IMG/VR virus record: IMGVR_UViG_2806310702_000003
Location: 25,379-89,378 of that record
Length of the DNA: 64,000 bases
Source of the DNA: a virus
Taxonomy: Duplodnaviria > Caudoviricetes
Strand: one strand, 5' to 3'
Numbering within the stretch: position 1 is the stretch's first letter; each line of letters starts with the position of its first letter. The notes under the pieces are model-generated. The model was not told the origin of the DNA and did no database searches. It worked only from the letters and a program-made list of their open reading frames with translations. A program made the translations under genes and the position numbers. Positions 1,029-48,057 of this stretch are shown piece after piece.

Positions 1029-1531
1029 CTTTATTTTTGCGAATTAAATTTCATGAAAACTAACCAATGCGTCTTTGCTCTTTTATTTCCCAATAAAGGT
1101 TTATGATCTATAACCTTTAAAATTTCTTTTAGCTTTATTTGTTCCTCATTCCACTTAAAAATTAATACTCCATAGTTGTCTAAAACTCTCATGCATTCTT
1201 CAAACCCTTTTTTAATATCTATTGGCCAATCATTATTTAACTTTCCATATTTCTTGGCCAACCAAGAATTTTCTCCAACTTTAATTAAATGTGGTGGATC
1301 AAAAACTACTAGCTTGAAAGTATTATCTTTATATGGAATATGTCTAAAATCTCCTACCACATCTGGTTTAATTATTAATTTTCTTCCGTCACATAATGTA
1401 TCTTCCAATTCTCTATTATCCATAAAAATTGCATCTTTATTTTCTTTATCAAACCAAAACATTCTGCTTCCACAACATACATCTAATATAGGCTTTTCCA
1501 AACTCTCACCCCTTCACAATCTACTATTTTT
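1029..1531. repeat. 503-bp direct repeat, copy 1 (methyltransferase cassette)
   Basis: Matches 47555-48057 by eye; identical 156-aa translation; identity stops at both ends inside conserved short motifs. Confidence 0.93.
1031..1501 (-). CDS. SAM-dependent (probably DNA amino-) methyltransferase, copy 1
   Basis: ILDVCCGSRMFW SAM-binding motif and VVFDPPH catalytic-like motif. Confidence 0.8.
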   Translation of the reverse strand: MEKPILDVCCGSRMFWFDKENKDAIFMDNRELEDTLCDGRKLIIKPDVVGDFRHIPYKDNTFKLVVFDPPHLIKVGENSWLAKKYGKLNNDWPIDIKKGFEECMRVLDNYGVLIFKWNEEQIKLKEILKVIDHKPLLGNKRAKTHWLVFMKFNSQK

Positions 1532-2120
1532 GTACATGTTTATTTACTTCTGATATCTTCTTATATATATCTGCTATAAGAATTCCTGTTCTTGTTAAAT
1601 TAGCATCGTTTTTTATTAACTTCTTTTTATTCAATATTAATAACTGGTGTTTTGACACTAATATTAAATTATTAATATTAAAATTAGCTCTGTTACCATC
1701 TCCAAATATGATCATATGTCCTTTGGGAATTGGACCATTATGTTTTTCCCAAATTAGATGGTGTTTTAATCTCCATTTATTTGGTTCTTTTATTTTAATT
1801 TCTGTATATCCATCTGCTGTTATTCTTTCACTTCCTACTTCTTTGTGGTTATGGGGTTTATGTCCATTTTTAAACCATGTTTTTTCGCAGCCTTTGTTGT
1901 ATACACCCTTAATTCCTTTATTCCATGGTTTATAACCTTTTGGGAATTGCCCAGTTAATCCACTTTTAAGTTTATGTCTTTTTTTAAAAGCTTCTATCTG
2001 GTTAATTGTTAAATTCAATAAAAAATGTTTGTTAAATTTAGCAGTAAGTTCCTTGGTGCTTATACCTTTAACATTGTTTTTTATAAAATCCGACTGTTCT
2101 GCTGTAAATACATGAGCCAC
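1524..2120 (-). CDS. HNH endonuclease
   Basis: KHHLIWEKHNGPIPKGHMIIFGDGNRANFNINNL, plus FxKGxxPWN/PHN repeats. Confidence 0.8.
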   Translation of the reverse strand: MAHVFTAEQSDFIKNNVKGISTKELTAKFNKHFLLNLTINQIEAFKKRHKLKSGLTGQFPKGYKPWNKGIKGVYNKGCEKTWFKNGHKPHNHKEVGSERITADGYTEIKIKEPNKWRLKHHLIWEKHNGPIPKGHMIIFGDGNRANFNINNLILVSKHQLLILNKKKLIKNDANLTRTGILIADIYKKISEVNKHVQK

Positions 2121-2122
2121 TT

Positions 2123-2356
2123 TTATCCCTCCAGCATTTTAGGTAATTCTGTAGTTTCTCTTCCTAATGTTTCAGCTTGTACTTTTTTAGCGTTTAAAAT
2201 TAATACTCCATTACTTATTATCTTATTAGCTACATCTGTAACTGCTTTTGCTCTGTTTATCTCTTGTTTTAATTCTTCTCCTGTTAAATCTTCATCACTC
2301 AATCTTTCTAATTGAGCAAATAAATGATTATTTAAATCACCAAGTGTGTTTCTCAT
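2123..2356 (-). CDS. Conserved phage protein preceding the HNH gene
   Basis: MRNTLGDLNNHLFAQLERL, good RBS. Confidence 0.7.
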   Translation of the reverse strand: MRNTLGDLNNHLFAQLERLSDEDLTGEELKQEINRAKAVTDVANKIISNGVLILNAKKVQAETLGRETTELPKMLEG

Positions 2357-2730
2357 AATACCTCCTATAACTATTTTAGTTTCTTTTTGTGCGAAATTAC
2401 TTGTTTTTGTAAGTAAAAAATTTGCTATTTTTTAAGCATTCTTTCTTAGTTGTTACAGAAATGTTTAACTGCTTTCGAATAGCTTGTACTACAAGTATAA
2501 CAAACTATATTGTCTTTGTTAAATGCTATTTAAGCATTTTGAAGGTATTAATACATTAAAAAGAGTTATTTGAACTAAATAGCTTGTATTTTCTTTTAAT
2601 ATAGCGAAATTACTTTCTTTTTTTATTGAATTGGTGTTTATAGGTATGATATAATGTTCTTGCGGCATACTTTATAATAAAGTATACTGATTTATAAAAT
2701 AATTTGATATAAAGAAAAGAGAGGGTTACA

Positions 2731-3144
2731 ATGGCAATTTTAAAGAAGGAAAGTAAAAAAAGTGAAATGAAAACATTAGGACAGAAAATAAGGGAACAGA
2801 GAAAATCAAAGGGTTTGACAATAAGAGATTTAGCACAACTTTGTGAAGTATCATCTTCATTTATAGGTTCTATAGAACGAGGTGATAATATGCCTAGCAT
2901 GATAAGAATTAAGCAATTAGCACACATACTAGGTCTAAGCATAACTTATTTACTAGGTGAAAAAGAAATGGAGATAAATGAAAAAGAAGTGCTTGATCGT
3001 TTAAAAGATGGAAATGACAATTATGAAAATTTCTTAAAAAATCATGTATTTCCTAACGGATTAACTTATGACCAAATGTGTGATAAAATAAAAACATTTG
3101 AGCAGTTCCAAATTTTACTTGAAAATGCAAATAAAAAGAAATAA
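2731..3144 (+). CDS. XRE-family HTH repressor (CI-like, phage X)
   Basis: LGQKIREQRKSKGLTIRDLAQLCEVSSSFIGSIERG HTH; divergent from early genes. Confidence 0.85.
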   Translation: MAILKKESKKSEMKTLGQKIREQRKSKGLTIRDLAQLCEVSSSFIGSIERGDNMPSMIRIKQLAHILGLSITYLLGEKEMEINEKEVLDRLKDGNDNYENFLKNHVFPNGLTYDQMCDKIKTFEQFQILLENANKKK

Positions 3145-3215
3145 TATATAAAATTAAACATACAGAAATAGGACAAGTTGAAAAATAACTTTATCCTATT
3201 TCTTTTTTTATTAAA

Positions 3216-4175: not shown

Positions 4176-4274
4176 AAAAAGTCCTCCTATTATGTATCTA
4201 AAAAAGCTTACACAAATAAGAGGTTTTTACCTAAAATCTATTGACTATTATATATACATATAATATAATTATGT

Positions 4275-4372
4275 ATATAATAAGTATATAGAAAAAGGTT
4301 AAACCTTTATTGTGCATCCGTATCAATTTTAGCGGTCAAACTAATGGATTGATACGGGTTTGTTCTTTTTTG
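4275..4372 (+). ncRNA. Putative antisense (counter-transcript) RNA in the rep leader
   Basis: TTGACT-17-TATAAT at 4241-4269; long hairpin 4316-4359 followed by T-tract; homologous layout at 54540-54670. Confidence 0.55.
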
Positions 4373-4792
4373 ATATTTATTTTTTATTTTCGATTATTTT
4401 TGTATTTATATTGTAATTTTACAACATAATATAATAGTTTGTAAAGCGCTAGTTAAAAAACTGGTGCTTTTATTTTTATTTTACTTTTTATGGGATTTAT
4501 TATAACATAGTAGATATAGATGTTATTAATATTCTATTATAAATCTATTAGGAAAATATCAAGCACACATTTTATAAAAACTTAATATTATAATTATTAT
4601 AAATCTATCAGAAAGCTATCATATTTATACTTGGAATTAGTTATAAATATGATACAAACTTTATTTTAATAGAAAAACAATGAAAATATATTAGAAATAT
4701 GTTGAATAAGTAGCATAAAAAATATATACTATAAGTATTATTAGAATAAAAATAGTTTTCTAATAGAAATATATTAAATTGGGGGAAGTAAT

Positions 4793-5716
4793 ATGGGAAT
4801 TGAAAAAGAAATACAAATTATAGGATTGGACATAGGAAGAGGATATGTCAAGGGGTATTCTGAAATAAACGAAATGAAGAAAGAAGTACTTTTTAAATCT
4901 ATAATAAGTGAAGGAAGATCACTTAATTTTGATGAATTTGAAAATCCAATATATGTAGAAGCAGTTGGAGAAAAATATTTTGCAGGATTATTAGCTGAAA
5001 AGGAAGGGTATACACCTATTAGAAATAGTAAAGACAGCAAAGTATCTGATACAGTTGAAAAACTTGTTTACGCTGCATTAAATTCATTAGCAGTTAAAGA
5101 AAAAGTAAGTATAATGTTTGGTGTTCCTTATAAGCTTTTTAAAAAAAGTACATTAGAAGAAGTTGTATCAAAATATTCTAATAAAAATATTAAAATAAAA
5201 GATAATATAACTGGAGCATATAAAAATATAACAATATGTAATGTAAGTATATTTAGAGAAGCTGATGCAGCAGCTATGTGGGAAGTTAGAAATAACATGG
5301 AAAATGCTAAACCTATTGGAATTGCAAATATAGGATTTAGAACAACAGAACTAAGTTATTTTGACAAAGGATTGAGGTTTAACGATAAATATTCTAAGAC
5401 AATAGAACTGGGAAATAGAACTGCTTTAAAGATGATACAAGACCACCTCGAAAGTAATAATATAATGAAAGAATTACAAGAAATAGATAGTTCTGATGAT
5501 TATGAAAATTTGAAAAGAAAAGCTTATAAAGTACTATCTGAAAGAGTTAGCCAAGATATTGAAGATAACTGGATTAACTTAGACGAAATGGAGATATTAA
5601 TAGCAGGTGGAACTGCTAAACACATGAAATTTGATGAAGGATTTAGAATAATAGATGAACCTCAAATGGCAACTGCTAAAGGGTTGTACTTAGTAGGTAC
5701 TAGAGTTTTTAAATAG
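4793..5716 (+). CDS. parM: ParM/StbA actin-like partition ATPase
   Basis: GLDIGRGYVK, NIGFRTT and LIAGGTA actin-fold motifs. Confidence 0.88.
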   Translation: MGIEKEIQIIGLDIGRGYVKGYSEINEMKKEVLFKSIISEGRSLNFDEFENPIYVEAVGEKYFAGLLAEKEGYTPIRNSKDSKVSDTVEKLVYAALNSLAVKEKVSIMFGVPYKLFKKSTLEEVVSKYSNKNIKIKDNITGAYKNITICNVSIFREADAAAMWEVRNNMENAKPIGIANIGFRTTELSYFDKGLRFNDKYSKTIELGNRTALKMIQDHLESNNIMKELQEIDSSDDYENLKRKAYKVLSERVSQDIEDNWINLDEMEILIAGGTAKHMKFDEGFRIIDEPQMATAKGLYLVGTRVFK

Positions 5717-5724
5717 GTGATATT

Positions 5725-6024
5725 ATGAAAAAAAGTATAAGTTTTAATTTAGAAGAAGATATTATAGAAAAGATAGAGCAATATCAAAAAGAAAAAAGGC
5801 TAAGTTCCAGAAGTGCTGCTCTTGAAAGAATAATTTTATCTATGGATCATATTAATATTAATAACATGTTAGAGATTTTCAAAAATACATTACAAAATAA
5901 TAATATAGATACACAAGTAAAAAAAGAAGATGTAATAGTAGAAGAACCTTTAAAAGAAGAAATAAAAAACAACAAAATAGAAAATAGTGTAAATGATATA
6001 TTTAGTAGTATGCCCCAAGATTAA
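5725..6024 (+). CDS. ParR-like RHH adaptor
   Basis: KKSISFNLEEDIIEKI...SRSAALERII RHH pattern, directly after parM. Confidence 0.7.
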   Translation: MKKSISFNLEEDIIEKIEQYQKEKRLSSRSAALERIILSMDHININNMLEIFKNTLQNNNIDTQVKKEDVIVEEPLKEEIKNNKIENSVNDIFSSMPQD

Positions 6025-6126
6025 CTTGGGGTTTTGTTTTGAAAAAGTATAGGTATTTGATAATTTTAACTAGTTTATTTATATGTAAAAAAATGCTCTG
6101 GAGTATATTCCAGAGCATTCAAAATA

Positions 6127-8481
6127 TCATCTTATTGGTGCTGGTAATTTAGTTATAAATCTAGCATATCCATTTGTTGTTTTTATAAGATTTAAACTAC
6201 TATACCTTTTCAAATTAAGCAAATCTTCTAATTGAAACGGTTGTAATTCTTCTTCTAATTCTTTATAATTTTTCTTATCTGTACCTTGCAATAACATATA
6301 AGATGCTCCAGAAGCTTTTAAAGATTCTCTAATAGTTTCTATTTGACTTAAATAATGTGCTGATATAATAAATTTAAGTTGGAATTTACGACATTGAGGT
6401 AATATATCTTTAAGCATATTTTCGCTTGTAGGTGCTTGAAATATTTCATCTAATAATACATGAGTTCTCAATGGCTTATCATGTATTTTACCTCTAATTT
6501 GAGAAGCTAACCAAATTTTTGTTGTGAAATAAGTTACTATTACATTTTTAACATATTTAAGTGGATATTTATGTTCTGGAATTTTAATTAAGATTACTTT
6601 CCCTTGTTCTAGTTGTTCTACAAAATCTATATTATTTTCTAAGGATTTATTAAACATAAATTTTAATTTGAAATCTTCTTTTAATAAATTTATTCTATCT
6701 AATATGTGTTCTATTTTACTATCTTTATTACTAAATCTTAGTGTTTTTACTTCTTTTGTTGTAGGGTCCTTAATTTCTTTTACTTCATTTAATTCATCTA
6801 GTGCTTTTATTTCATCTTCCAAAAACTTTTTTAAATTTTCTGGAGTTTCTTCATATAATTTATCTCTAGTAGCAGGATATTGTAATGCATTTATAACATC
6901 TCTAAGACTTTTATTTTCTTTTAAATGCACTATATTAGCTGCTGCACTTAAATACCTTCTCATTCTAGAAGTTAAAGGAGCACCATCACTGTTTATTGCA
7001 TCTATTAAAGCCATATCTTGTTGTGCTATTAAATTAGCAGTTTCTAAAATTTCAAACTCTGTCATATTCTCCTTAAATTTAATTTCGTTGTAACCAAACC
7101 CTTGTAGGTCCTGTTCTTTTGACATATCTATAATTAGTAGCTTTTCTTTAGGTACTACTGTTTCAATATCACTAGACAACTCACAGTTTTTAATAAAATC
7201 TAAAACTATAAGGTTTTCTCCAGCTTTAATTACATCACTTGCATAATTTTTGAAGTATTCGGACTTTCCAGAACCCTGTGGACCCATAACTACTAATCCT
7301 AAATTTGCTAAGTTTTTATCACTGCTCATATACGCTAGTTTCTTATTGCCTTTATAATCATTTTCTCCTAGTTTTATATATCCATTTTGCAATTCTTGTG
7401 AAAGTTGATTTTCCAGTATATTTCTATGTTGAATACAACTATATTTTTCTAGTAAATCTCTAGCTGGTAACTGGATAAAATTATGACATTCCTCTGTGCT
7501 TATTCTGTTTTCTTCAACTCTTGCAATTTTAAAATCAGTTGCATTAAATATATGTTTTTTAGAAATTTTTCTATATGAAAGTTCATTATCTTCTGAAATA
7601 GAGTTATAAGATTCCATAATTGAAATGATATTATTACGTTTCCTAATAATTTCTGTACTATCTGATAAAACTAAAATTTGAGTATTTAAGATAGTAGCTT
7701 CTTTTTTATTTAGTGTATGTGTAGAAAGTTTTTTATTAGAATTTAACAAACATGTTGCAAGTTCAAGCAAAGTTTCCTTATTATCTTTTTTTATTTCACC
7801 TCCTATAAAATCCAGAATGCTTTCTGTAAGCATCTGCATAAATTCTAATGCATAAGTGAATATAGTTTTTATTATAAATGCACTACTTCTTTTTTCCCGT
7901 TCTAGAGGTAAATTTCTTTTGAATTTATTTAGAGTTTCATTATAATTCTTTTTCCATGACAATTGACAACAAGGCATGAAATTATAAAATATTCCTATAC
8001 GATCATCATCTTTTAATATATCCAATACATTTAAAATTTGATTAAGAGGTGTATTAGATTTTTTATTGATATTTAAAGATAAAGCATCTTCTTTTTTATA
8101 ATTTAATTGATATTTAAGAACATCTTGAGAAAAGGATTTAACTTCCTTTACTTCTTCTATAGTTATTTGTGACCAAGTTTGAAGAATTTTATCTTTTATA
8201 AGAGTTGCATATTGTTCTGGAACTATAAAATAAAAACTAGTATTATCTTTTGTTATATCTATAAAATAACTGCACTTTACTTGTGTTTCTATAAAATATT
8301 TTTTTTCAACCTTTTTAATTCTCTGATTAATGGTTTTATACATACTTTGAATTGATTTTGCTATATTGGAACTATCATAATTTCTTATAGATGAATGTGG
8401 AATAAGTTTTAAATAAATATACTTTGGTTTAATTATTTCAAAGTAGTTAGATATTTTAATACTAACTTTTTTCTTAAACAT
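6127..8481 (-). CDS. VirB4/TraG-like (FtsK-HerA superfamily) P-loop ATPase, copy 1
   Basis: Walker A GPQGSGKS, Walker B LLDE, CRKFQLKFIISAHYLSQ; clear paralogue of 54812-57136. Confidence 0.75.
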   Translation of the reverse strand: MFKKKVSIKISNYFEIIKPKYIYLKLIPHSSIRNYDSSNIAKSIQSMYKTINQRIKKVEKKYFIETQVKCSYFIDITKDNTSFYFIVPEQYATLIKDKILQTWSQITIEEVKEVKSFSQDVLKYQLNYKKEDALSLNINKKSNTPLNQILNVLDILKDDDRIGIFYNFMPCCQLSWKKNYNETLNKFKRNLPLEREKRSSAFIIKTIFTYALEFMQMLTESILDFIGGEIKKDNKETLLELATCLLNSNKKLSTHTLNKKEATILNTQILVLSDSTEIIRKRNNIISIMESYNSISEDNELSYRKISKKHIFNATDFKIARVEENRISTEECHNFIQLPARDLLEKYSCIQHRNILENQLSQELQNGYIKLGENDYKGNKKLAYMSSDKNLANLGLVVMGPQGSGKSEYFKNYASDVIKAGENLIVLDFIKNCELSSDIETVVPKEKLLIIDMSKEQDLQGFGYNEIKFKENMTEFEILETANLIAQQDMALIDAINSDGAPLTSRMRRYLSAAANIVHLKENKSLRDVINALQYPATRDKLYEETPENLKKFLEDEIKALDELNEVKEIKDPTTKEVKTLRFSNKDSKIEHILDRINLLKEDFKLKFMFNKSLENNIDFVEQLEQGKVILIKIPEHKYPLKYVKNVIVTYFTTKIWLASQIRGKIHDKPLRTHVLLDEIFQAPTSENMLKDILPQCRKFQLKFIISAHYLSQIETIRESLKASGASYMLLQGTDKKNYKELEEELQPFQLEDLLNLKRYSSLNLIKTTNGYARFITKLPAPIR

Positions 8482-8482
8482 A

Positions 8483-8761
8483 TTACACCTCCATAAAACT
8501 TGCTATTGCTTGTATTAATGCGTATCCAGTAATACTAATAGGTATTAACTTTCTTCCTTTTTTGCTACCACACATATATAAAAAGATTGAACCAAAACAT
8601 ATTACCAAAGCTATGTTGTAAGAAGCTCCTGCACCTTTTAAAAATAAGACCTTACAACCTTTAATTGGATGAAACATATAATAAAATCCATTTACAAGTG
8701 TATCTAAACTATTTTTTATTTGATTTAAAGTTTCTAACACATAAACTCCTCCCTTAAGCAA
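8483..8761 (-). CDS. Small membrane protein
   Basis: Two hydrophobic segments; counterpart at 57133-57468. Confidence 0.65.
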   Translation of the reverse strand: MLKGGVYVLETLNQIKNSLDTLVNGFYYMFHPIKGCKVLFLKGAGASYNIALVICFGSIFLYMCGSKKGRKLIPISITGYALIQAIASFMEV

Positions 8762-9164
8762 ATATATCCTTTATAATATCGAGAATCCAAGGCAATAGGT
8801 AAAGACTACTAAAAGCCAAAGCGTATTTTGTAATTATTTTAGCAATACTTTTTGTATCTCCTTGAAGCAATTCTTTTATAATGCTAGTAATACACATAAT
8901 AATACAAGTCCAGTAACCAATAGTTCTACAAATTCCCAAAATAGTATTTCCAGCTTGATCTATTTTTGCAACGCTAGCAGTTGATTTTGCTAATGCATTC
9001 TTGCAATATAACATATTTGCTAATACGAAAATACTTAGCTTTTTTAATTTTGAATTATTATTAATTTCTTTTGCTATTAGCTCCAAATTATTTAATTTCT
9101 TTTGTTCCTTTCTATCTTTTAAATTCTGTAAAAAACTAGAATGGTAAACACAAATTATCTGCAT
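8754..9164 (-). CDS. Membrane protein, TrbC/VirB2 pilin-like topology
   Basis: Start MQIICVY after GGAGG; ALA-type processing site followed by two TM helices; counterpart at 57479-57856. Confidence 0.55.
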   Translation of the reverse strand: MQIICVYHSSFLQNLKDRKEQKKLNNLELIAKEINNNSKLKKLSIFVLANMLYCKNALAKSTASVAKIDQAGNTILGICRTIGYWTCIIMCITSIIKELLQGDTKSIAKIITKYALAFSSLYLLPWILDIIKDIFA

Positions 9165-9222
9165 AAAAACCTCCTTATTGTAAATAATAAAAATAAATTG
9201 ATTCGGAAACGAGGGATATAAA

Positions 9223-9306
9223 ATGGATGTATTTTTTGCAATTACATTATTCATGGGTGGTATTCAAGTTGGAGCAGAAACAGTTTGTAAATTTTTAGGA
9301 ATGTAA
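9223..9306 (+). CDS. 27-aa hydrophobic micropeptide MDVFFAITLFMGGIQVGAETVCKFLGM
   Basis: RBS GAGGG; SigF/G-like promoter at 9161-9189; positional counterpart at 57928-57990. Confidence 0.55.
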   Translation: MDVFFAITLFMGGIQVGAETVCKFLGM

Positions 9307-9455
9307 ACAATATGTTAATAATTACAAAGTAAGTCGCAAAAGAGTAAACTTTTAGAAAGTTATAACATACGCTAGGAGTATACGAGGAAGCGTAGCAAGG
9401 AGTAACTCATAGCTTTCCTAGGCAAAGCCTAACCATTAATGGAAGGCTTTGTTTT
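9302..9455. other. Conserved non-coding element, copy 1
   Basis: Blocks TGTAAACAATATGTTAAT, AGTAAGTCGCAAAA, AGTAAACTTTTA, CATACGCTAG, AAGCGTAGCA, CTAACCAT shared with 57993-58150. Confidence 0.75.
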
Positions 9456-9497
9456 TATATATTTTTGATTAATGTTGGAGCAATTTTTATATAAAAT

Positions 9498-9650
9498 TTA
9501 CTCCTTATTTTCTTTTTGCTTTTTTAAATACTTTATATAGTATTCTATTGCATTTTTAATAAAGTTACTTTTTTCTTCCTGCCCCTGTACTTCTAAATAT
9601 AAATTCATATCTCTAGTAGTTTGTTTAAAGCTAACAGGTATTTTAGGCAT
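9498..9650 (-). CDS. 50-aa RHH-like DNA-binding protein
   Basis: MPKIPVSFKQTTRDMNLYLEV...KSNFIKNAIEYY; RBS AGGAGG; counterpart at 58178-58339. Confidence 0.65.
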   Translation of the reverse strand: MPKIPVSFKQTTRDMNLYLEVQGQEEKSNFIKNAIEYYIKYLKKQKENKE

Positions 9651-9893
9651 ATATTTTAATACCTCCTTACATCTTATTTAATACTAATGTATACAAAAAG
9701 GGTTCAAATTGTTACTAATTTCATTGACAAATTAAATAAAAATATTTAATATTTATATATAATTAACTATGTGGTATGTAAATTATGTTTATTATTATAT
9801 TTACAATGAACTTTTATATTAACTATGTGAGAAGTTATTTTCTATAAAAAAAACAAGGATACCTAAAATATAGTATCCTTAAAAATTATTATT

Positions 9894-11042
9894 TTAAATA
9901 AGTTTTATATAATCTGCGCTTACATATCCTCCGTGTGATCCATAATAAATTTCATACCAATTTCCAACCTTTTTAAAAATCTTAACAGTATCATTTTTAT
10001 TTAAAATTCCTAAAATATTATTATTAGTTGTAGTGTCCATAGCACTTCTTATTCTTACTCCGTTTCCTGTGCAAGAACCTATGCGGCTATCTAAAGAACC
10101 ACTAGAGTTATTGCTAGTTGTTGTAGCTTTACCATTTTTGAAATTATTTAATGGGAAATACTTCCCTGGGCAATTAGAACTTCCAACCTCTCTATGTCCA
10201 TATATACCCATGTTTCCATATTTATTTTTGAGATAAGATATTAATTGTAATCCAGCATTAAATTGTGTATCAGGCATGCTTTTATCCGTATTATGATAAT
10301 CACCCTCGAATGCAATACCAATAGAATTTTTATTAAATCCCTTGCAGTGTGAACCTAGTGTCCACTCTGGTCTACCTCTATAAATAGAACCGTCTTTCCT
10401 AATATAAAAATGATAGCCTATACCTACCCAGCCATTTCCTAAATGTAATTGATGTAGCCTTTCTATGTTCCAGCCAGTACATTCAGTATGATGTAGTACA
10501 ATATTTCTCGGACTATTATTGTTAGGTAATCCATTTCTAAAATTTAAATTTGTATCTATAATATTCATAAAATTACTTCCCTTCATATCATATTGATTTA
10601 AATTATAATAGTTTATTAATTTTAAAATCTTATCTATATAATTAGGATCACTTGTATATCCTCCATTAAAAATTGCTTGTATTTGCTCCTTATAGTCTTT
10701 AGCCGTAAAAACACTTGCTTCTACATACCATTTCTTTTTCAAAAACAAAGCATGATCAAGTATACTTTCTGACCAACTATTATAAATCCTAAAAGGTTGT
10801 TTAACAGTAATTATTCCACTGCGTGTGTATTCTCTAGTATCTATATTAGCAATAGGTCCACTCCAATCTCTTAACGCTTTAATTCCAAAAAGGTTATTAT
10901 ATTTTTTAGCTAAGACACTTGAACCCCAGCCACTCTCTAATATTGCTTGTGCTATAGATACACTAGCAAATATTTTATATTTAATTTGTGTATCTATAGC
11001 ACTATCTTTTATTTTATTTATAAATTCTAGCTGTTCACACAT
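9894..11042 (-). CDS. Endolysin: GH73 glucosaminidase + Amidase_2 + SH3b
   Basis: AQAILESGWG, NNLFGIK, GYTSDPNY; IVLHHT, GIGYHFYI, SNCPG; C-terminal WYEIYYG SH3. Confidence 0.9.
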   Translation of the reverse strand: MCEQLEFINKIKDSAIDTQIKYKIFASVSIAQAILESGWGSSVLAKKYNNLFGIKALRDWSGPIANIDTREYTRSGIITVKQPFRIYNSWSESILDHALFLKKKWYVEASVFTAKDYKEQIQAIFNGGYTSDPNYIDKILKLINYYNLNQYDMKGSNFMNIIDTNLNFRNGLPNNNSPRNIVLHHTECTGWNIERLHQLHLGNGWVGIGYHFYIRKDGSIYRGRPEWTLGSHCKGFNKNSIGIAFEGDYHNTDKSMPDTQFNAGLQLISYLKNKYGNMGIYGHREVGSSNCPGKYFPLNNFKNGKATTTSNNSSGSLDSRIGSCTGNGVRIRSAMDTTTNNNILGILNKNDTVKIFKKVGNWYEIYYGSHGGYVSADYIKLI

Positions 11043-11059
11043 ACATTACTCCTTTGAAT

Positions 11060-11317
11060 TTATTTTTTATTTGTACTTTGTTTTACAAGTTGATTAGCAT
11101 AAACAGTTACACCTGTTACTAAAACACCTTGAATAATAGCACTTGCATTAAAGCCCATCAATGCAGTAGCCCCAATAACCCCAAATATAAGAAGCAGCCA
11201 TGGTATTACCCAATCTTTAATTTTTTCTGTTGATTTAAGCATTATACCTAGTATGTATAAAACAGGTATTAGTATAAAAGATTGTTGTACTATGTAATTC
11301 ATAATATTTACTTCCAA
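11060..11317 (-). CDS. Holin
   Basis: Hydrophobic; ILIPVLYILG...IQGVLVTGVTVYANQLVKQ; adjacent to endolysin. Confidence 0.85.
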   Translation of the reverse strand: MEVNIMNYIVQQSFILIPVLYILGIMLKSTEKIKDWVIPWLLLIFGVIGATALMGFNASAIIQGVLVTGVTVYANQLVKQSTNKK

Positions 11318-11327
11318 AATATCACCT

Positions 11328-11549
11328 CTATTTTATTTTTTCTTTAATATCCTCAACATCTTTTTTTATTTCCTCAACCACATTGAATTTATCAGTTAAT
11401 TTTCTTATGATGCCTTGATAGTTTTCCTCTCTTTGTTCTTGCTTAGCATCTCTTTTCTCTTGCGCTCTTAAAATATAAAATATTAAAGCTACACTAAGCG
11501 CTGCCCATACACCTTGTGATGATGCAAGTTTTAAGATCTCATTATCCAT
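11328..11549 (-). CDS. BhlA/UviB-family holin-like protein
   Basis: SQGVWAALSVALIFYILR...REENYQGIIRKL. Confidence 0.85.
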   Translation of the reverse strand: MDNEILKLASSQGVWAALSVALIFYILRAQEKRDAKQEQREENYQGIIRKLTDKFNVVEEIKKDVEDIKEKIK

Positions 11550-11691
11550 TCGTCACCTCCATATTTTTGTATTGAACGAAATTAGTTGTTATTTAAATTA
11601 TATCATTTTTAGAAAAAACATAAGATAATTGGTAATTCACACTAGAATTTCTCTATAAATATGATAATATAATTAATAGGAGGGATAGATT

Positions 11692-12297
11692 ATGGAAATT
11701 AAATCTAAAGAAAATTTAAAGGGAAAAAAGGTTTATGGGAAAATATGGTTTATAGTGCTTATGTTAATTTTTTTCTTCCCAGTTGGAATATATTTAATGT
11801 ATAAATATAAAAAGTTTTCATCTAAAACAAGAGGATGTATTGTTACTATTATAGTTATACTAGGTATAATAGGGGTGTTTACAGAAGATAAACAAAAGGT
11901 ATTTGATAAAGAATCTAAGCAAATAACGCAAGAATATAAAGAAGAAACTGGAGAAGAAGATATTCAAGATTGGCAAAAAAATATATCTCTTTATGGAAAT
12001 ATATTATCTAAAAAATTTAATAGTTTTAGTGATGCAGCAAATAAACTTGATATTGAAAAAATGAATGTCTATTCAAAAAGTATAGTTGAATACTCTTATA
12101 AGTTAAAAGAAGTAAAATTACCAGTTGAATATAGAAATGCTAAAAATAAAATAAATGAAGCTTGTGATATATACATTGAAATATATGGAGAAATGCCAAA
12201 GAAATGCATGGATATAGAATGGGTTAATAAAAGTGAACCTAGATTAAATAAAGCAAATGATTTAATTAGAGAAGCTTCAAAAGAGTTTAAAAGCTAG
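11692..12297 (+). CDS. Membrane-anchored moron protein (possible superinfection exclusion)
   Basis: Opposite strand, own promoter and terminator, WFIVLMLIFFFPVGIYLM N-terminus. Confidence 0.65.
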   Translation: MEIKSKENLKGKKVYGKIWFIVLMLIFFFPVGIYLMYKYKKFSSKTRGCIVTIIVILGIIGVFTEDKQKVFDKESKQITQEYKEETGEEDIQDWQKNISLYGNILSKKFNSFSDAANKLDIEKMNVYSKSIVEYSYKLKEVKLPVEYRNAKNKINEACDIYIEIYGEMPKKCMDIEWVNKSEPRLNKANDLIREASKEFKS

Positions 12298-12374
12298 TAG
12301 AAATTAATCTACTAGCTTATTTTTATGTATTAATTGTTTTATTGTTTACTTCGTAATATTTTTCTATTACGCAA

Positions 12375-12509
12375 TTAATCTTCTGTGTATTCTTGTCCTG
12401 TTATCTTTTTGAATTCTTCTTTAGTTATACAATTCCACTTACACGCTTCTTTCACTAATTCAAATTTTAACATTCCTTGTTTATAAAAAACATTATAAAA
12501 ATCAAACAT
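12375..12509 (-). CDS. XkdX-family small protein (44 aa)
   Basis: MFDFYNVFYKQG...CITKEEFKKITGQEY read by eye. Confidence 0.8.
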   Translation of the reverse strand: MFDFYNVFYKQGMLKFELVKEACKWNCITKEEFKKITGQEYTED

Positions 12510-14729: not shown

Positions 14730-15545
14730 TTATAATAAAATTCCCATCTTTGCAGAAATTGAAGTTATTCCACATTTTAAGAAATTTTGCTTGAAATAAA
14801 ATGGATTACTTTTGATTTTTATAATTTCAATTGGATTTTTAAAAGTAATTTTATAAGGATTTTTAGTCATCTTTATTTTTTTAACAGTATCTTTAAAAGT
14901 AATGTTGGGCTTTAACTTTATTTTTACAGTTTCTTTATTGTTGTTAATTCTGTACTGGAGTCTTACTCCAGAACTAACTGCTGATTGAAGTTCTGGAATA
15001 AATATGGGTTTATATTTTTTTATTGTTTGTTTAGTTAAAGGAATAGATTGCATTCCATTACCTAAACAAGAAACTCCAGTGTTAACTGTCCCGCATTTTA
15101 AAGTGTGATAAGCATTATCTAATATATAATTTTTTAATTTATTAGAGCTTAAATTTACTTCTAACATAGCTGGCTCATGGGCTAAATCTTTAAATTGATA
15201 CCCTTGTCTTATTCCTATAAAATTTTCTCCTAAAAAAGCACTAGCTAAATTATTTACATCTTCTATATATCCCCTAGAATTATTTTGCATTATTCTAGTT
15301 TTAATTCTATTTCTATATTTTTCATCATCTTTATATTTTTCAGTTCTTTTTTGTCCTACAATATCCCCTATAATATCAAGCCCATATAATTCAGCGTTGT
15401 TTATATCTCGATTATCAATAATTTCATTAAATACATCTATAAGTTCATCATAGAAAAATGATAAAACTTCATAGTATTTATTTATATTTTCTCCATTTTC
15501 AAGGTAATAAGGTAATAAACTTATTAATCTTTCTTTTGTATGCAT
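14730..15545 (-). CDS. Baseplate wedge protein (DUF2612-like)
   Basis: LDIIGDIVGQKR...DDEKYRNRIK motif after baseplate J. Confidence 0.7.
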   Translation of the reverse strand: MHTKERLISLLPYYLENGENINKYYEVLSFFYDELIDVFNEIIDNRDINNAELYGLDIIGDIVGQKRTEKYKDDEKYRNRIKTRIMQNNSRGYIEDVNNLASAFLGENFIGIRQGYQFKDLAHEPAMLEVNLSSNKLKNYILDNAYHTLKCGTVNTGVSCLGNGMQSIPLTKQTIKKYKPIFIPELQSAVSSGVRLQYRINNNKETVKIKLKPNITFKDTVKKIKMTKNPYKITFKNPIEIIKIKSNPFYFKQNFLKCGITSISAKMGILL

Positions 15546-16708
15546 TATTTCACCTCGATTTTTTCTAATTCCGTTGTAGCAACCTCTAAATCTTTAACGG
15601 TTATATTTTTATTGTTATAAGTTTTTCCATCTATGCTTACTTCAATATCTATATCTTCTATACCATCTATGTTTGCTTTATCTATGATGGAAATAATTTT
15701 ATAAAGTATGATATTTTGACCTATTTTAAAGCTATCAAAATAAGCTTTAACAATATTTTTTATAGATTTATCACCATCTTCTGGATAATTAGTTCCTTTA
15801 GTTATTTTCAATTTAATCCATATATTTTTAAATTTAGGTCTACTAAATCCTATTAAATGCTTTTGTTTTTGGCTATCTTTTATTTCAACTATAGTAGTTC
15901 CATATGGTTGTATTCCTCCGGCGTATTTTTCAAATATTGCTTGTGCTATAGCTTTATCTTCTCCACCAAAAACAACTACATGAAATGACTTAGGTGGTAC
16001 ATCTCCTTTCTTTTCCATAGTGTAATTAACATCAACAAATACATCTTTAACTCCTGTTACTTCACTTATTCTTGCTTTTATGCTATCAAATATATTAGTA
16101 GCACGTAAACTTACACTTTTATCATATCTTTCTCTAAATTCTGGATCACTTTCTCTATATTCTCCATTTTCAGTTTTAGATTTATTAGTAACACTTTTAA
16201 CTCCTAAAATTGGTTTAATAATTTCTGTAATAGTTCCTTCTGGAACGTTACTTTGTTCGCCTATTTCTTCAGCTATAATATTTATATCAACTGTACCACC
16301 TTCAGGTATAATTTTTGTTTCTATTGTGGTAAATAAGATGTTATCTTTTGTACCAATAATAAACCCTTTTGGTACTTCTATATCTTTATCTCCTGTAACT
16401 GTAATAATCCCTGTAGCCTTATTACCTTGTTTTCTTGCTATTCCTATGTAATTACCTTTGCTGCTTAAAATATTGCCTTCAGCCATCTTAGGAGAAGCAC
16501 TATAAAAACTATGTTCAGCCACTTCCCATAATTCACTTAATAAATAAATATAAGGTAATGAGAATTGATACAAAGGGTCTTGTTCTGTAAAATCTATATT
16601 TTCTCCAAAACTATCTTGACTTTTTAATCTATCTCTAAATTCTTCTATAAGTTCAACAAAACTTTTCTTTTTAAAACCATTTTTAGTTATTCCATATCCA
16701 TTAATCAA
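15545..16708 (-). CDS. Baseplate J/gp47 protein
   Basis: YGITKNGFKKK, ATGIITVTG, ESDPEFRER, PPKSFHVVVFGG. Confidence 0.88.
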   Translation of the reverse strand: MINGYGITKNGFKKKSFVELIEEFRDRLKSQDSFGENIDFTEQDPLYQFSLPYIYLLSELWEVAEHSFYSASPKMAEGNILSSKGNYIGIARKQGNKATGIITVTGDKDIEVPKGFIIGTKDNILFTTIETKIIPEGGTVDINIIAEEIGEQSNVPEGTITEIIKPILGVKSVTNKSKTENGEYRESDPEFRERYDKSVSLRATNIFDSIKARISEVTGVKDVFVDVNYTMEKKGDVPPKSFHVVVFGGEDKAIAQAIFEKYAGGIQPYGTTIVEIKDSQKQKHLIGFSRPKFKNIWIKLKITKGTNYPEDGDKSIKNIVKAYFDSFKIGQNIILYKIISIIDKANIDGIEDIDIEVSIDGKTYNNKNITVKDLEVATTELEKIEVK

Positions 16709-27997: not shown

Positions 27998-27999
27998 TC

Positions 28000-28155: not shown

Positions 28156-28164
28156 CTACTTCCC

Positions 28165-28389
28165 TTACTTCATGCATATACCTGTTAGTTGTCCGTACTT
28201 TTCGTATAATCTTTTAAGATTATCAATTTCTAAATCCATAATGAATATATCTTCTCCACATTCGTTGCAAACGCCTATATTTTCTATTACATTTACTTTT
28301 ACACCTTTGTATTCTGCCATAAGTTCTTTTCTTATCGTATAATTAACTTCTTTATTGCATTTAGCACAAAAAATTCTATCTTCTTTCAT
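28165..28389 (-). CDS. YgiT/MqsA-type zinc-finger protein
   Basis: FCAKC...YKGVKVNV...CNECGEDIF. Confidence 0.7.
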   Translation of the reverse strand: MKEDRIFCAKCNKEVNYTIRKELMAEYKGVKVNVIENIGVCNECGEDIFIMDLEIDNLKRLYEKYGQLTGICMK

Positions 28390-28426
28390 ATATCAATGCC
28401 CCTTCACAATCTACTATTTTTCTTTA

Positions 28427-29223: not shown

Positions 29224-29239
29224 GTACATGTATTGAAGC

Positions 29240-30490
29240 TTAAAATATTGATTTAATTTCTTGCAATTCTTTAATGAATAAATCTAATTTAGATTTTTCT
29301 ATAGCAATAGCACCTATTTTTTTTACATTTTTATCTTCTATACAAATAACTTCATCATCTTTTATATACTTCATTAATCCTTCTACTGTTGTAGGTTTAA
29401 GAAGTGGTTTCTGTTCTTCAATATCTTTTTCTAATGTTTTATGTACATATTCTGTTACTTCTTTACAATTTATATTATCAGTGTTAATTACTTTATTTTC
29501 ATTTTTTTTAGGTTCTTGAGCATATATTTTAGTTCCTTTTGGAATTTCTATTTCTTCTATTTCTTTTGGTTTAAATGATATATTTTTTTTATTATAATAA
29601 CTTCTATACGTTGTTACAGTAGACATTGTTATTCCTAATGTCTTTACTACTTCTGTGTTTGTAAGTCCTTTCTTAAATAGTTCAAAAGCTTTTTCTTTCT
29701 TTGACATTTCTCCTTCTCTCCTTCTATATCTTTTATTTTCTTTATATTCTTTTACACTTAGTATTTCTCTAAGTTTATTAAGTGCTTTCTTTTCTTGTCT
29801 TGAAACATGTACTTGAGTAATCCCAAGCAATTTGGCTGTTTCTACTTGTGTCTTATCTTTAAAATATCTTAATTCAATAATTGCTCTAAGTTGAGGGTTT
29901 AGTTGTTTTATAGCTTCTTGTACTAGGATATTATTCAATACAGTATCTTCTTTAAATACATTTCCTTCAATATTATCAGCTAATGTTATAAAAGTAGAGC
30001 CATCACTATGTATGATTTTTTCTATACTCTGTACTAAGTTAGTATTTGATAATTTCAAGCCTTCTTGAACTTCTTCTACTGTAAACCCTGTTTCCTTTAC
30101 TATTTCTTCTATAGTTGGACTTCTATTAAATTTTCTTTCCAATAAATATTCTATATATTTAATTTTATTTCTTATATCTAAAAGTGGTCTTGGAATTTTT
30201 ATAGGGTTTGTATCTCTTAAAAATCTTTGTACTTCTCCCATAATCATAGGAACTGCATAACTCGAAAATTTAACATCGTATTCTTTAGGATTGAAATTCT
30301 TAATTGCTTTAACAAGTCCAATATTGCCCATTTGTATTATATCCTCAGCTTCATGTTCTTTATTAAAGAACTTTTTACATGTACTTATCACTAACGGCTT
30401 ATTAAGTTCAAAACTTAATTCAAATGCATTCTTATCACCTTTTTGAGCTTTTTCAATTAATGCATTATTATCATTATATGTTAATTCCAT
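29240..30490 (-). CDS. SigF/SigG-like sigma factor with long C-terminal extension
   Basis: AQKGDKNA, GNIGLVKAIKNF, KFSSYAVPMIMGEVQRFLRD, RYFKDKTQVETAKLLGITQVHVSRQEKK. Confidence 0.88.
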   Translation of the reverse strand: MELTYNDNNALIEKAQKGDKNAFELSFELNKPLVISTCKKFFNKEHEAEDIIQMGNIGLVKAIKNFNPKEYDVKFSSYAVPMIMGEVQRFLRDTNPIKIPRPLLDIRNKIKYIEYLLERKFNRSPTIEEIVKETGFTVEEVQEGLKLSNTNLVQSIEKIIHSDGSTFITLADNIEGNVFKEDTVLNNILVQEAIKQLNPQLRAIIELRYFKDKTQVETAKLLGITQVHVSRQEKKALNKLREILSVKEYKENKRYRRREGEMSKKEKAFELFKKGLTNTEVVKTLGITMSTVTTYRSYYNKKNISFKPKEIEEIEIPKGTKIYAQEPKKNENKVINTDNINCKEVTEYVHKTLEKDIEEQKPLLKPTTVEGLMKYIKDDEVICIEDKNVKKIGAIAIEKSKLDLFIKELQEIKSIF

Positions 30491-30607
30491 TTATACCTCC
30501 TAGAATTTTACTATATAATTAATATATCATTTTACGAATAAAAAACAAGTAATTTCGTACAAACTACTTGTTTTTTTACGAAATTACTTGTTTGAAAAGC
30601 TAAATTT

Positions 30608-33510: not shown

Positions 33511-33742
33511 TAAATTCTAATCACCTCACTTCTAATTTTAATTGGGAAATGCTCTATGTAAAAACAATTCCCAAGATCGCTAACCTTTTTAAATTTATTT
33601 TGTTTTCTTTCTTTTTCTAATGTTTTAGCTAATTCATGTCTTTCATCTAATCTTTTATAAGGTATTACTTCAACTCTAATCATTTTAAACTCCCCTTTTT
33701 TGTACGAAATTAGTTGTTTTTTTACAAGTAAAAAACTTTAAA

Positions 33743-35284: not shown

Positions 35285-35387
35285 TCACCTCGAACGAAAT
35301 TACTTTTTATTAATTTAATTTTACACTATTAAATGGTAATTTTCAATAGTTTTGTACGAAATTAGTTATAAAAAACAAGAGAAGGAC

Positions 35388-42532: not shown

Positions 42533-42674
42533 TTAACACACTCAAAACAAGTTATTCCACATTTATCACCTATTTAGTTTTTTTGAACTAAATTAGTTGT
42601 TTTTTTAATTAAAAAAATATAAACCTTTTATATAATTATAACTTGAAACAACTAATTTAGCTTAATGTTACTTT

Positions 42675-45474: not shown

Positions 45475-45534
45475 CTAATTCAACGATTTAGCTTTCTTTT
45501 TGTGCTGAATTAGTTGTTTTTTTGTTTTAAAAAA

Positions 45535-45780
45535 TTAACAATAATATCTTCTTCTAGTAGATTCTCCACCTCTGATGTGCCTTACTTTTAAGTTGTAATC
45601 TAATACTTTTCTAACTTCTTTTGCTAATTTGGGATTTACTAACTCTAATCTTTTTGTTGCATCCTTATGAATAGTGCTTTGACTAACGCCAAAAACTTTC
45701 GCTGCTTTTCTGATAGTAGCTTTAGTTTTTAAAAGATAAGCTCCAACCTCTCTTGACCTATTTGCTACATAATCTTTCAC
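45535..45780 (-). CDS. spoIIID: Sporulation regulator SpoIIID homologue
   Basis: KATIRKAAKVFGVSQSTIHKDATKRL...RHIRGGESTRRRY. Confidence 0.9.
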   Translation of the reverse strand: MKDYVANRSREVGAYLLKTKATIRKAAKVFGVSQSTIHKDATKRLELVNPKLAKEVRKVLDYNLKVRHIRGGESTRRRYYC

Positions 45781-46145: not shown

Positions 46146-46312
46146 TGTTTCAAAAATTTATAGTTTACTTCTGCTTTAGCCATTTTTTCAGTAAGCATAT
46201 TCTCTAATTCAACTAGTTGTTCATATATCTTCATTCTTTTTTTAAAATTATCTTCTAATACAATTTTAGAAGTAAGCATAATAATCTTAGTCTTTATATC
46301 CCAAATACTCAT
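46130..46312 (-). CDS. Hypothetical protein
   Basis: RBS GGAGG. Confidence 0.5.
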   Translation of the reverse strand: MSIWDIKTKIIMLTSKIVLEDNFKKRMKIYEQLVELENMLTEKMAKAEVNYKFLKHCIVS

Positions 46313-46330
46313 TATAAATCCCTCCTGTAA

Positions 46331-46939
46331 TTATTTTTTAAGCTTCTCATATCCAGCACATAGCTCATCATATTGCGCTTTTGTCATTTCGTGTAAATGT
46401 TGAACATTATACTTTTTCATTGCTTGTGCTTTAATAACATCTGGACCATATCCGGCATTTTTTGCAATTGCATATAATCTTTTTATTTGTGCATCACTTA
46501 AATTACCTTTATTTGCACTTGTTTTGCTCTTATTTGCGCTCGTATTGCCAGTATTTGTTGTATCACTGTCTTTAGTATCGTCAATGCAAAACAAACCATT
46601 TAAAGCATATTTACGAGCGTAGGAAGATGTACTTCCTGTAAGCTGACTTGCATCCATACCCTTTTTGTTTTCTTCTTCTCTAGCAAATGCACTTACACTT
46701 TCTTTATCTCCTGTTTCGACATCTGTAACAGTTGCAGTTGCTTTAATGTAATATCTATCCCCTATAAGCGTTATTTCATCTGCTATTGTTAAAGAAAGCT
46801 TATTATCTAACAATAGTGGTTTAACTGCTTCTAAAATATCTTCGCAATTTCTATAAGAATATTTTCCAAAGTTGTTGTATTGGCTTTTAGGTGCTTTTAA
46901 TTCGCTTTGCACCTTCATTAATTTTTCGTATATTCCCAC
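46331..46939 (-). CDS. ERF-family ssDNA annealing protein
   Basis: LKAPKSQYNNFGKYSYR, GSTSSYARKYAL. Confidence 0.9.
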   Translation of the reverse strand: MGIYEKLMKVQSELKAPKSQYNNFGKYSYRNCEDILEAVKPLLLDNKLSLTIADEITLIGDRYYIKATATVTDVETGDKESVSAFAREEENKKGMDASQLTGSTSSYARKYALNGLFCIDDTKDSDTTNTGNTSANKSKTSANKGNLSDAQIKRLYAIAKNAGYGPDVIKAQAMKKYNVQHLHEMTKAQYDELCAGYEKLKK

Positions 46940-46950
46940 TTAAATCCCCC

Positions 46951-47487
46951 CTATTCAACTTTTATTGATACTGTTTCAACTTCCTCTACATCTACACCTG
47001 GAAGTATTTCTCCAGTTTCTGCATTAACTCCATCTTTAAATGCCTTTTTTAATTCTGCTTTATTTAACTCTTGCTTAATTTTTATTAAGTTGTTATATCC
47101 ATTACTGTTAAGATAATTAAGCGTTTCTACTTCATCTCTATAATTCCATTTTGTACTTTTTCTAGCACTTACTTTTCCATATGGTGTTGATAATTTGAAT
47201 TTCTTATCTTGTTGTTTTTGTTCAACGTAGTAATTTTGTAGCAACACTTCAAAATATTCTATGCTATTCTTTGCACTTTCGTTTTCTTTCTTTTCCCACT
47301 CATCAATTCTAAATTTTTCGGCATCTGCTAATGCTTTGTTTTCCGCTATTTGTTCTTTTAATGCTCTTATTTTTCTGAAACACCAGTTAGCACTTTCCAA
47401 ACTATCTACTTTAAATCCTGTTACTTCTTCTTGCATAACATGATTCATTTCTTGTATTTCACTTTCAATAAATTTATTCAATTTCAA
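46951..47487 (-). CDS. Mu Gam-like host-nuclease inhibitor
   Basis: ANWCFRKI, KLSTPYGKV, GEILPGV. Confidence 0.75.
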   Translation of the reverse strand: MKLNKFIESEIQEMNHVMQEEVTGFKVDSLESANWCFRKIRALKEQIAENKALADAEKFRIDEWEKKENESAKNSIEYFEVLLQNYYVEQKQQDKKFKLSTPYGKVSARKSTKWNYRDEVETLNYLNSNGYNNLIKIKQELNKAELKKAFKDGVNAETGEILPGVDVEEVETVSIKVE

Positions 47488-47554
47488 CCCTCCTATTTAC
47501 ATTTTAATTACATTTACATAATATTGTATATGTAAACTTATTATTTTCACTTTA

Positions 47555-48057
47555 CTTTATTTTTGCGAATTAAATTTCATGAAAACTAACCAATGCGTCT
47601 TTGCTCTTTTATTTCCCAATAAAGGTTTATGATCTATAACCTTTAAAATTTCTTTTAGCTTTATTTGTTCCTCATTCCACTTAAAAATTAATACTCCATA
47701 GTTGTCTAAAACTCTCATGCATTCTTCAAACCCTTTTTTAATATCTATTGGCCAATCATTATTTAACTTTCCATATTTCTTGGCCAACCAAGAATTTTCT
47801 CCAACTTTAATTAAATGTGGTGGATCAAAAACTACTAGCTTGAAAGTATTATCTTTATATGGAATATGTCTAAAATCTCCTACCACATCTGGTTTAATTA
47901 TTAATTTTCTTCCGTCACATAATGTATCTTCCAATTCTCTATTATCCATAAAAATTGCATCTTTATTTTCTTTATCAAACCAAAACATTCTGCTTCCACA
48001 ACATACATCTAATATAGGCTTTTCCAAACTCTCACCCCTTCACAATCTACTATTTTT
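47555..48057. repeat. 503-bp direct repeat, copy 2
   Basis: Matches 1029-1531, offset 46,526 bp. Confidence 0.93.
47557..48027 (-). CDS. SAM-dependent methyltransferase, copy 2
   Basis: Translation identical to 1031-1501. Confidence 0.8.
   Translation of the reverse strand: MEKPILDVCCGSRMFWFDKENKDAIFMDNRELEDTLCDGRKLIIKPDVVGDFRHIPYKDNTFKLVVFDPPHLIKVGENSWLAKKYGKLNNDWPIDIKKGFEECMRVLDNYGVLIFKWNEEQIKLKEILKVIDHKPLLGNKRAKTHWLVFMKFNSQK

Follow-up and report, generated by a model that had tools for sequence, protein, structure and literature searches.

A 64,000-nt window of viral DNA (bases 25379-89378 of an 89,378-bp IMG/VR virus record) carries, at the ends of small accessory genes, two short motifs that are the long and the short form of one intercistronic linker, and not two different sites. 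The linker lies between a gene's stop codon and the ribosome-binding site of the gene downstream, recurs in temperate phages and phage-like plasmids of the Clostridium botulinum group III / C. novyi type, and is the site where these genomes are joined, as the positions at which their homology breaks demonstrate. These data support a cassette-like shuffling of genes at the motifs. As to how the joints are made, we think it probable, with moderate confidence, that genes are exchanged by recombination over the short homology that the linker provides, in a manner analogous to the promoter-early stem-loops (PeSLs) of T4-type phages.

The long form (L), AAAAATAGTAGATTGTGAAGG, and the short form (R), the 15-mer TTCGCAAAAATAAAG, each occur in the window in four exact copies, all on the minus strand (Table 1). 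Shuffled sequences are expected to hold 0.02 copies of L even when up to 3 mismatches are allowed, and 0.87 copies of R at up to 2 mismatches, with 2 of 100 shuffles reaching four; the remaining 25 kb of the record contain no further copy of either motif. An initial annotation of this DNA had placed the eight copies correctly, save that the third L ends at 29222 and not at 29223, and its observation is confirmed as a whole, while its interpretation, an integron-like cassette system, is partly supported: the cassette-like shuffling at the motifs is supported, and the integron-like mechanism is not, given a short element that is half ribosome-binding site, the lack of a significant fold and the lack of a common recombinase. 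The cargo is indeed unrelated, comprising a methyltransferase (MTase; PHROG 954) twice, a nucleotidyltransferase (PHROG 388) and four small open reading frames (ORFs), one of them with a DUF3797 domain, and the motifs do supply stop codons, namely those of the MTase, of a 120-aa ORF and of an HNH endonuclease (PHROG 1891, Pfam HNH_3) beside MTase copy 1. The two MTase copies belong to a repeat of 513 bp at 99.6% identity (1019-1531 versus 47545-48057); its limits had been put inside the motifs at both ends, and the repeat does start exactly at the left motif, but it extends about 10 nt past the right one. The four small ORFs have no internal linker between them, and single members of this set are found separately in records G002, G006, G013 and G016 and in the named plasmid p6CSt. 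The 116-aa ORF behind MTase copy 1 likewise follows an R element in G003, G016 and p6CSt.

Table 1. Linker elements, cassettes and other features, by position in the window unless another record or locus is named
Feature	Position	Strand	Remarks
R element	1029-1043	minus	then 116-aa ORF
MTase cassette, copy 1	1031-1501	minus	99.6% identical to copy 2; PHROG 954
L element	1511-1531	minus	upstream of MTase copy 1; TAG is the HNH endonuclease stop codon (..HVQK*)
Intrinsic-terminator-like hairpin	27407-27436	minus	closes sigma-factor/nucleotidyltransferase/small-ORF block just before head-tail adaptor gene
R element	27446-27460	minus	TAA terminates 120-aa ORF (..NSQK*)
Four small ORFs	27448-28389	minus	74, 51, 70 and 120 aa, third with DUF3797; one multi-gene cassette
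Composite R + 5 nt + L	28401-28441	minus	between two tandem cassettes; L 28401-28421, R 28427-28441
Nucleotidyltransferase cassette	28443-29189	minus	248 aa; PHROG 388, Pfam RlaP
L element	29202-29222	minus	between sigma-factor and nucleotidyltransferase genes
R element	47555-47569	minus	TAA is the MTase stop codon (..NSQK*)
MTase cassette, copy 2	47557-48027	minus	156 aa; PHROG 954
L element	48037-48057	minus	upstream of MTase copy 2; 5 nt past stop of 91-aa ORF
Tyrosine recombinase (integrase)	62388-63425	minus	ordinary prophage type; adjoins lysis genes of neighbouring phage copy
RAGATH-18 RNA (Rfam)	63915-63975	minus	60 bits versus gathering score 44.9; upstream of integrase region
Second repeat family	2386-2422, 11571, 25223-25259, 30573, 33699-33735, 35289-35367, 38939, 42582-42618, 45499-45535		
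Tyrosine-recombinase genes downstream of arrays	G004 14869-15864; G007 6132-6758; G009 6409-7437; G010 5178-5765; G012 4180-4818; G013 9870-10382; G015 29555-30067; L177 7005-7940		

Both forms have the same layout, in which the upstream stop codon is followed by TTCGCAAAAATA, an optional GTAGATTGTG, and AAGG(A/G)G, with which the Shine-Dalgarno sequence of the downstream gene begins. L can be written (T/A)ACG(C/T)AAAAATA-GTAGATTGTG-AAGG and R TTCGCAAAAATA-AAGG; CGCAAAAATA is common to the two, and the element is 15-26 nt long and conserved in sequence. The initial annotation had taken the ends for two different recombinase half-sites. However, the G008 copy of this MTase gene (97% identical) has R upstream of it in place of the L of the window, with homology resuming at AAGGGGTGAGAG, and L and R are therefore alleles of one element. 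L is typically found at the head of an array, right behind replication genes (DnaC/IstB-like, replisome organiser), and R after each small gene. Within arrays, composites of R, then 5-9 nt, then L occur in the window, G004, G012, G013, G014, G015 and p6CSt, and hybrid forms are seen in G002, which carries TTCGTAAAAATAGTAGATTGTGAAGG, and in G003 and p6CSt, which carry ATACGCAAA[A/G]ATAAAG. Conservation drops to background immediately outside TTCGCAAAAATAAAG, and the most informative part of the element is TTCGC.

The 3' part of the element (AAAGGAG, GGTGA) fits the extended Shine-Dalgarno sequence of Firmicutes, and the segment once read as a recombinase arm is this Shine-Dalgarno region. A Shine-Dalgarno-like motif lies at most 12 nt away from 33 of 41 R-type copies, and 38 of the 41 have a start codon 8-30 nt downstream; 34 of the 41 lie -15 to +16 nt from the end of an ORF that encodes 35 aa or more, as against 1919 of 34000 random positions (5.6%). 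The cassettes had been described as promoterless, and this holds, since promoter-like sites at cassettes and elements show no excess over shuffles; no terminator was found at the elements. The L form was considered as a promoter and set aside, as its promoter-like sites do not exceed those of shuffles and the matches to TTAAAA-16-TAGTAT picked out by eye are weak. Individual cassettes carry neither a promoter nor a terminator of their own and so are not morons; a terminator is present only at the end of the whole sigma-factor/nucleotidyltransferase/small-ORF block, and a similar one is found in a related plasmid locus (L176).

The linker recurs in 20 other IMG/VR phage records and in p6CSt, a named plasmid of C. 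botulinum group III. The exact left motif is found in only 3 other IMG/VR contigs, each of which has the right motif 245-427 bp downstream and different cargo between the two. The right motif has chance matches in many viral contigs, and in about 16 low-GC contigs it directly follows a stop codon and directly precedes a ribosome-binding site, in many cases with two copies within 180-480 bp. Those 16 whole records and the window's own make up the census set of 17 records (700,207 bases); as they were found through the motif itself, their number is no measure of the element's frequency. A simple longest-ORF rule served to call ORFs, and Pfam was run on 150 of the 191 ORFs of the array regions. 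In the 17 records the gene strand has 32 exact copies of the 15-mer, the opposite strand has none, and the reversed pattern is absent; the gene-strand to opposite-strand ratio is 41:0 for R-type and 25:0 for strict L-type copies. Arrays hold up to 7 elements, mostly between small genes and mostly in the region of accessory genes directly behind the replication genes, and G015 has 5 exact copies and one variant within 2.5 kb. Arrays are also present in four more records and in p6CSt. In G017 (a 185,683-bp record; L228, locus position 3001) there is one L variant, AAAATAGTATTTTATGAA, and no R, and it precedes the same 174-aa gene that comes after the linker in G004. The 17 records are otherwise very different, with no or only distant homologues of the terminase, the capsid and most other genes of the window. 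Among species-representative genomes the left motif has 12 matches, in unrelated taxa and none in Clostridium, which we read as chance, and a short BLAST search of the 61-nt composite against plasmids returned only two C. botulinum C/D plasmids and chance hits.

The evidence that the element marks genomic joints comes from an all-against-all BLAST comparison within the set of 17 records (matches of 100 bp or more at 85% identity or more), in which each pair of gene boundary and partner record was scored as spanned by homology or broken. There are 50 boundaries with an element, and a break is seen at all 35 that are informative (73 pairs broken, 1 spanned). Boundaries without an element within 3 kb are broken in 67 of 135 cases (101 pairs broken, 138 spanned), and those further away in 53 of 255 (75 broken, 325 spanned). 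The Fisher p for the comparison is 1.6e-9, which is not a true probability because the records are related and not independent. It had been anticipated that the motifs would bound cassettes with different cargo and neighbours in related phages and plasmids, and that presence/absence and replacement breakpoints would map to them; both expectations hold. The break also falls within the element: upstream homology extends 6-19 nt into it, downstream homology begins 9-17 nt before its anchor, and both partners share it, so that the two homologies overlap and the crossover would lie inside the shared bases. The sole spanned pair at an element is a tandem duplication inside G016 (loci L174-L175, 32026-32459), where 419 bp comprising a 3' gene end, the linker and 254 bp of the 116-aa ORF are repeated; it was considered as an element-mediated event and rejected, the junction being away from the element.

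Individual gene swaps follow the same boundaries. The 91-aa ORF is 95-100% identical in G000, G004 and G013, and three different genes follow it after AAAAATAGTA; the 116-aa ORF stands behind R after four different genes; and in all 5 of the groups that share a gene upstream of L the first cassette differs. In one case an occupied and an empty site can be compared, locus L242 having geneX-linker-gene19 and G015 having geneX-linker-Y-linker-Z-linker-gene19, with flanks 89-90% identical. The hybrid forms resemble the junction and the empty site that had been predicted, but the exact string predicted for empty sites does not occur with homologous flanks; a degenerate form of the pattern matches 41 stretches, none of which has flanks homologous to the HNH, sigma-factor, 116-aa, adaptor or Gam genes of the window. 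The junction string predicted for excised circles has a single match, the L element of G002. At plasmid locus L176 the order is capsid, 108-aa ORF, 65-aa ORF, terminator and adaptor, and in the window the place of the 65-aa ORF is taken by the sigma-factor/nucleotidyltransferase/small-ORF block; that plasmid has no linker.

We infer that the joints arise by short-homology recombination rather than through a site-specific recombinase dedicated to the purpose, and that an additional role in translation initiation is why the element is kept. Since the copies hardly differ in sequence and all point the same way, each would offer a short stretch of identity, safely placed after a stop codon and before a ribosome-binding site. 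A crossover there would allow small promoterless genes to be inserted, deleted, replaced or copied as units, and could be driven by phage annealing proteins (for example the Erf/Gam pair beside MTase copy 2), by host RecA or by template switching. The two MTase copies of the window would then represent one cassette copied between two co-resident phage genomes.

Several observations weigh against this explanation. Joints share only 15-17 nt of identity in the case of R and about 10 nt (AAAAATAGTA) in that of L, which is at or below the usual need of homologous recombination. Conservation ends sharply at the limits of TTCGCAAAAATAAAG, and ribosome binding leaves the informative TTCGC unexplained; this pattern would suit a site recognised by a protein or an RNA. 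The element has weak inverted arms (TTCRC ... GTGAA), and a variant in G005, CACAAAA-ATAGTA-TTTTGTG, is a perfect 7-6-7 palindrome (fold z = -2.3). In 8 of the 17 records (G004, G007, G009, G010, G012, G013, G015 and G016) and in p6CSt, tyrosine-recombinase genes with the same orientation as the arrays are found 0.1-2.8 kb downstream of them; these genes are situated within early regions, and some are small (about 190-213 aa, PHROG 216, integrase-like) and some Xer-like. Finally, the breakpoint statistics draw on related records and a hypervariable region, and cause and effect are not separated in them.

The short identity, the sharply bounded and informative TTCGC, the inverted arms and the nearby PHROG 216 or Xer-like genes would all fit the view that TTCRC-AAAAATA-N7-GTGAA is the core site of a tyrosine recombinase acting in trans, with a phage-encoded or host Xer-type enzyme excising cassettes as circles and inserting them at other copies. 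Co-oriented arrays of promoterless genes, a first cassette that differs behind a common gene in every group, and L/R hybrids of the kind that L x R recombination should produce speak for it as well, and yet we regard such an integron-like system as rather unlikely. No recombinase is common to the 17 records in tblastn searches with 5 recombinase queries, which may miss other types: in the same searches G002 has none, G001, G005, G008 and G011 have only reverse-oriented prophage-end integrases, and G003, G006 and G014 have a serine recombinase only. The integrase of the window, which the initial annotation had proposed as a possible actor, is of the ordinary prophage kind, lies more than 14 kb from any array and shows no link to the element. 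The proposed right arm is the ribosome-binding site. The inverted 9-6-9 site that had been put together from the two ends proves weak, the window arms TTCGCAAAA and GATTGTGAA being complementary at 6 of 9 positions as read from the sequence. A hairpin reading of the element was rejected, for the RNA folds of the four window contexts are no better than shuffles (z = 0.5, -1.0, -0.2 and 0.2, none significant) and the left and right arms show no covariation across 19 L copies. Its short length and conserved sequence, moreover, set the element apart from attC. That a phage-borne system without IntI cuts and rejoins the full 26-nt TTCRC-AAAAATA-N7-GTGAA by a PHROG-216, Xer-like or host Xer recombinase acting in trans is, in this specific form, a doubtful proposition that we would back only at long odds; were it true, single accessory genes would move as circles between the co-resident phages and plasmids of one host group.

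A different objection is that the element is an expression signal only, a translation-initiation, RNA-processing or regulator-binding module of a small-gene regulon, and that breaks fall at it merely because every boundary in a hypervariable region is a breakpoint. Its invariable place on the gene strand between stop codon and Shine-Dalgarno sequence, the fit of its 3' half to an extended Shine-Dalgarno sequence, and the composite R+L and the L at array heads, which suggest a signal with its own grammar, are in keeping with this, and half of the neighbouring element-free boundaries are broken too. We nevertheless consider it improbable, because all the informative boundaries with the element are broken as against half of those nearby without it (pairs 73:1 versus 101:138), and because both partners have the element at the joint, with the upstream and downstream homologies overlapping inside it. 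There is no promoter excess and no Rfam family match at the element, and a role in expression is in any case compatible with one as linker. A further candidate is collateral homing, in which the HNH endonuclease would cut nearby and repair would copy the neighbouring cassette. That the HNH gene ends inside the L of MTase copy 1 speaks for it, but a homologue is present in 1 of the 17 records, that of the window, and neither the other three window cassette ends nor any of the arrays elsewhere has such a gene; collateral homing is thereby refuted as a general mechanism, and we hold it to be very improbable.

Short-homology exchange at the linker, the explanation we favour, has its closest parallel in the PeSLs, which in T4-type phages are described as short conserved regulatory sequences on the flanks of small genes that are non-essential and lie in variable regions (Arbiol et al. 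2010, PMC2839356; Comeau et al. 2014, PMC4122927). According to the same two papers, insertions, deletions and replacements between related phages map to PeSLs, homologous recombination between copies is proposed as the cause, and the cassettes are likened to those of integrons. The linker resembles PeSLs in that the same short conserved sequence stands on both flanks of variable genes, and in that insertion, deletion and replacement breakpoints lie at the element, as the boundary counts and the occupied/empty pair attest. It differs in that a PeSL combines a sigma70-like promoter with a terminator stem-loop and is found in lytic T4-like myoviruses of Gram-negative hosts, whereas the linker has no promoter or terminator signal, measures 15-26 nt, contains the Shine-Dalgarno region, lies inside operons, and is common to temperate phages and plasmid-prophages that are unrelated and come from a single clostridial host group; for PeSLs, furthermore, mini-circles have been demonstrated experimentally. 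Having neither a promoter nor a terminator stem-loop, the linker falls outside the definition of a PeSL: it works like one but is not one. A limited literature search found no description of the linker in clostridial phages.

The modular theory of Susskind and Botstein for lambdoid phages likewise invokes short conserved sequences between modules, at which homologous recombination joins unrelated segments (as outlined in PMC2839356 and PMC3029335), and the linker, too, forms short conserved joints between otherwise unrelated segments. The linkers of that theory, as PMC3029335 presents them, separate functional modules and are reported to be rare, most mosaic joints lacking them; here, by contrast, a single 15-mer, in up to 5 exact copies within 2.5 kb (G015), bounds single small genes. 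With integron cassettes the system shares co-oriented arrays of promoterless cassettes (41:0 and 25:0 by strand), a boundary within a conserved site, which circularisation of the cassette would restore, and a distinct form of the site at the array head. It differs in that no IntI-type integrase with attI and a cassette promoter was found beside any array, no recombinase gene lies adjacent upstream of the arrays, and none is common to the records. The attC sites of integrons are imperfect palindromes of about 57-141 nt that are conserved in structure rather than sequence and fold as single strands; the linker, in contrast, is 15-26 nt long, conserved in sequence and without a significant fold. 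Phage Rad52-like annealing proteins have been proposed to drive the mosaicism of temperate phages through relaxed homologous recombination (De Paepe et al. 2014, PMC3945230). In the window phage, genes for the annealing-type proteins Erf and Gam come directly after MTase copy 2, and G014 encodes a RecT 1.3 kb downstream of its array.

Modular shuffling at conserved regulatory linkers was known from lytic T4-type phages; these findings extend it to the temperate phages and plasmid-prophages of a Gram-positive host, with a linker that is translational, running from stop codon to ribosome-binding site, instead of a promoter-terminator unit. They provide a simple sequence rule for locating boundaries and exchangeable genes, among them methyltransferases, nucleotidyltransferases and small ORFs, and the linker model accounts for the presence of an identical gene in two co-resident phage genomes. 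Since the main disease traits of this host group are carried by phages and plasmids, routes of gene exchange between them are of practical interest.

The window itself contains a myovirus-type temperate phage or plasmid-prophage of low GC content (about 27%), which by PHROG and Pfam scans occupies the minus strand between about 51 kb and 9.9 kb. Read from the 51-kb end, the gene order begins with repressors, DnaD/DnaC-like genes, a 159-aa ORF, a 91-aa ORF and [L] MTase [R], continues with Gam, Erf, DnaB, terminase, portal, SSB, protease, capsid and the sigma factor, and then with [L] nucleotidyltransferase [R+L] four small ORFs [R] and terminator, followed by the head-tail adaptor, tail genes and lysis genes. 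The region at 54.8-63.7 kb is the paralogous right end of another copy, with lysis genes, a ParM-like gene and the integrase, and 1-4.2 kb is the early region of a further copy, with a replication initiator, the HNH endonuclease, [L] MTase [R] and the 116-aa ORF. Positions 6100-12400 and 54800-63700 match in patches that are 71-85% identical and include lysis genes, a ParM-like partition gene and a PHROG 5156 protein. From this arrangement, two or three related phage or plasmid genomes seem to lie in tandem within the record. The named relatives of the window are C. botulinum plasmids, some from group III strains; the host assignment is based on these named plasmid hits and on one spacer match. 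BLAST of the cassette regions against a phage collection yielded no close relatives, only distant single-gene matches and the one CRISPR-spacer match.

The gene for the sigma-70-family factor (416 aa, regions 2-4), together with the nucleotidyltransferase gene and the four small ORFs, occupies positions 27407-30570, within the structural operon between the capsid gene on one side and the head-tail adaptor gene on the other; the block is limited by a stem-loop at about 30573 and by the terminator. The matching spacer comes from a Clostridium phage D-1873 contig (L140, about 3074-3110, between cas5 and cas3) and corresponds to window positions 29238-29274 on the minus strand, the 3' end of the sigma-factor gene, inside a 47-bp BLAST match of 91.5% identity; by this match, the window phage appears to be targeted by the CRISPR array of the D-1873 contig.

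A second repeat family in the window, (C)AACTAATTTCGTACAAA, is mostly intergenic and just upstream of genes, sometimes in inverted pairs such as 25223/25258 and the one at 30573, which precedes a T-run. The window's record has 8 + 4 copies of it, the 16 related records no more than stray matches, and it may be an operator or promoter box of the window phage. A link between this box, CTAATTTCGTACAA, and the linker was considered and rejected: its confinement to the window's record makes it a feature separate from the linker. The sole Rfam match in the window is the RAGATH-18 RNA listed in Table 1.

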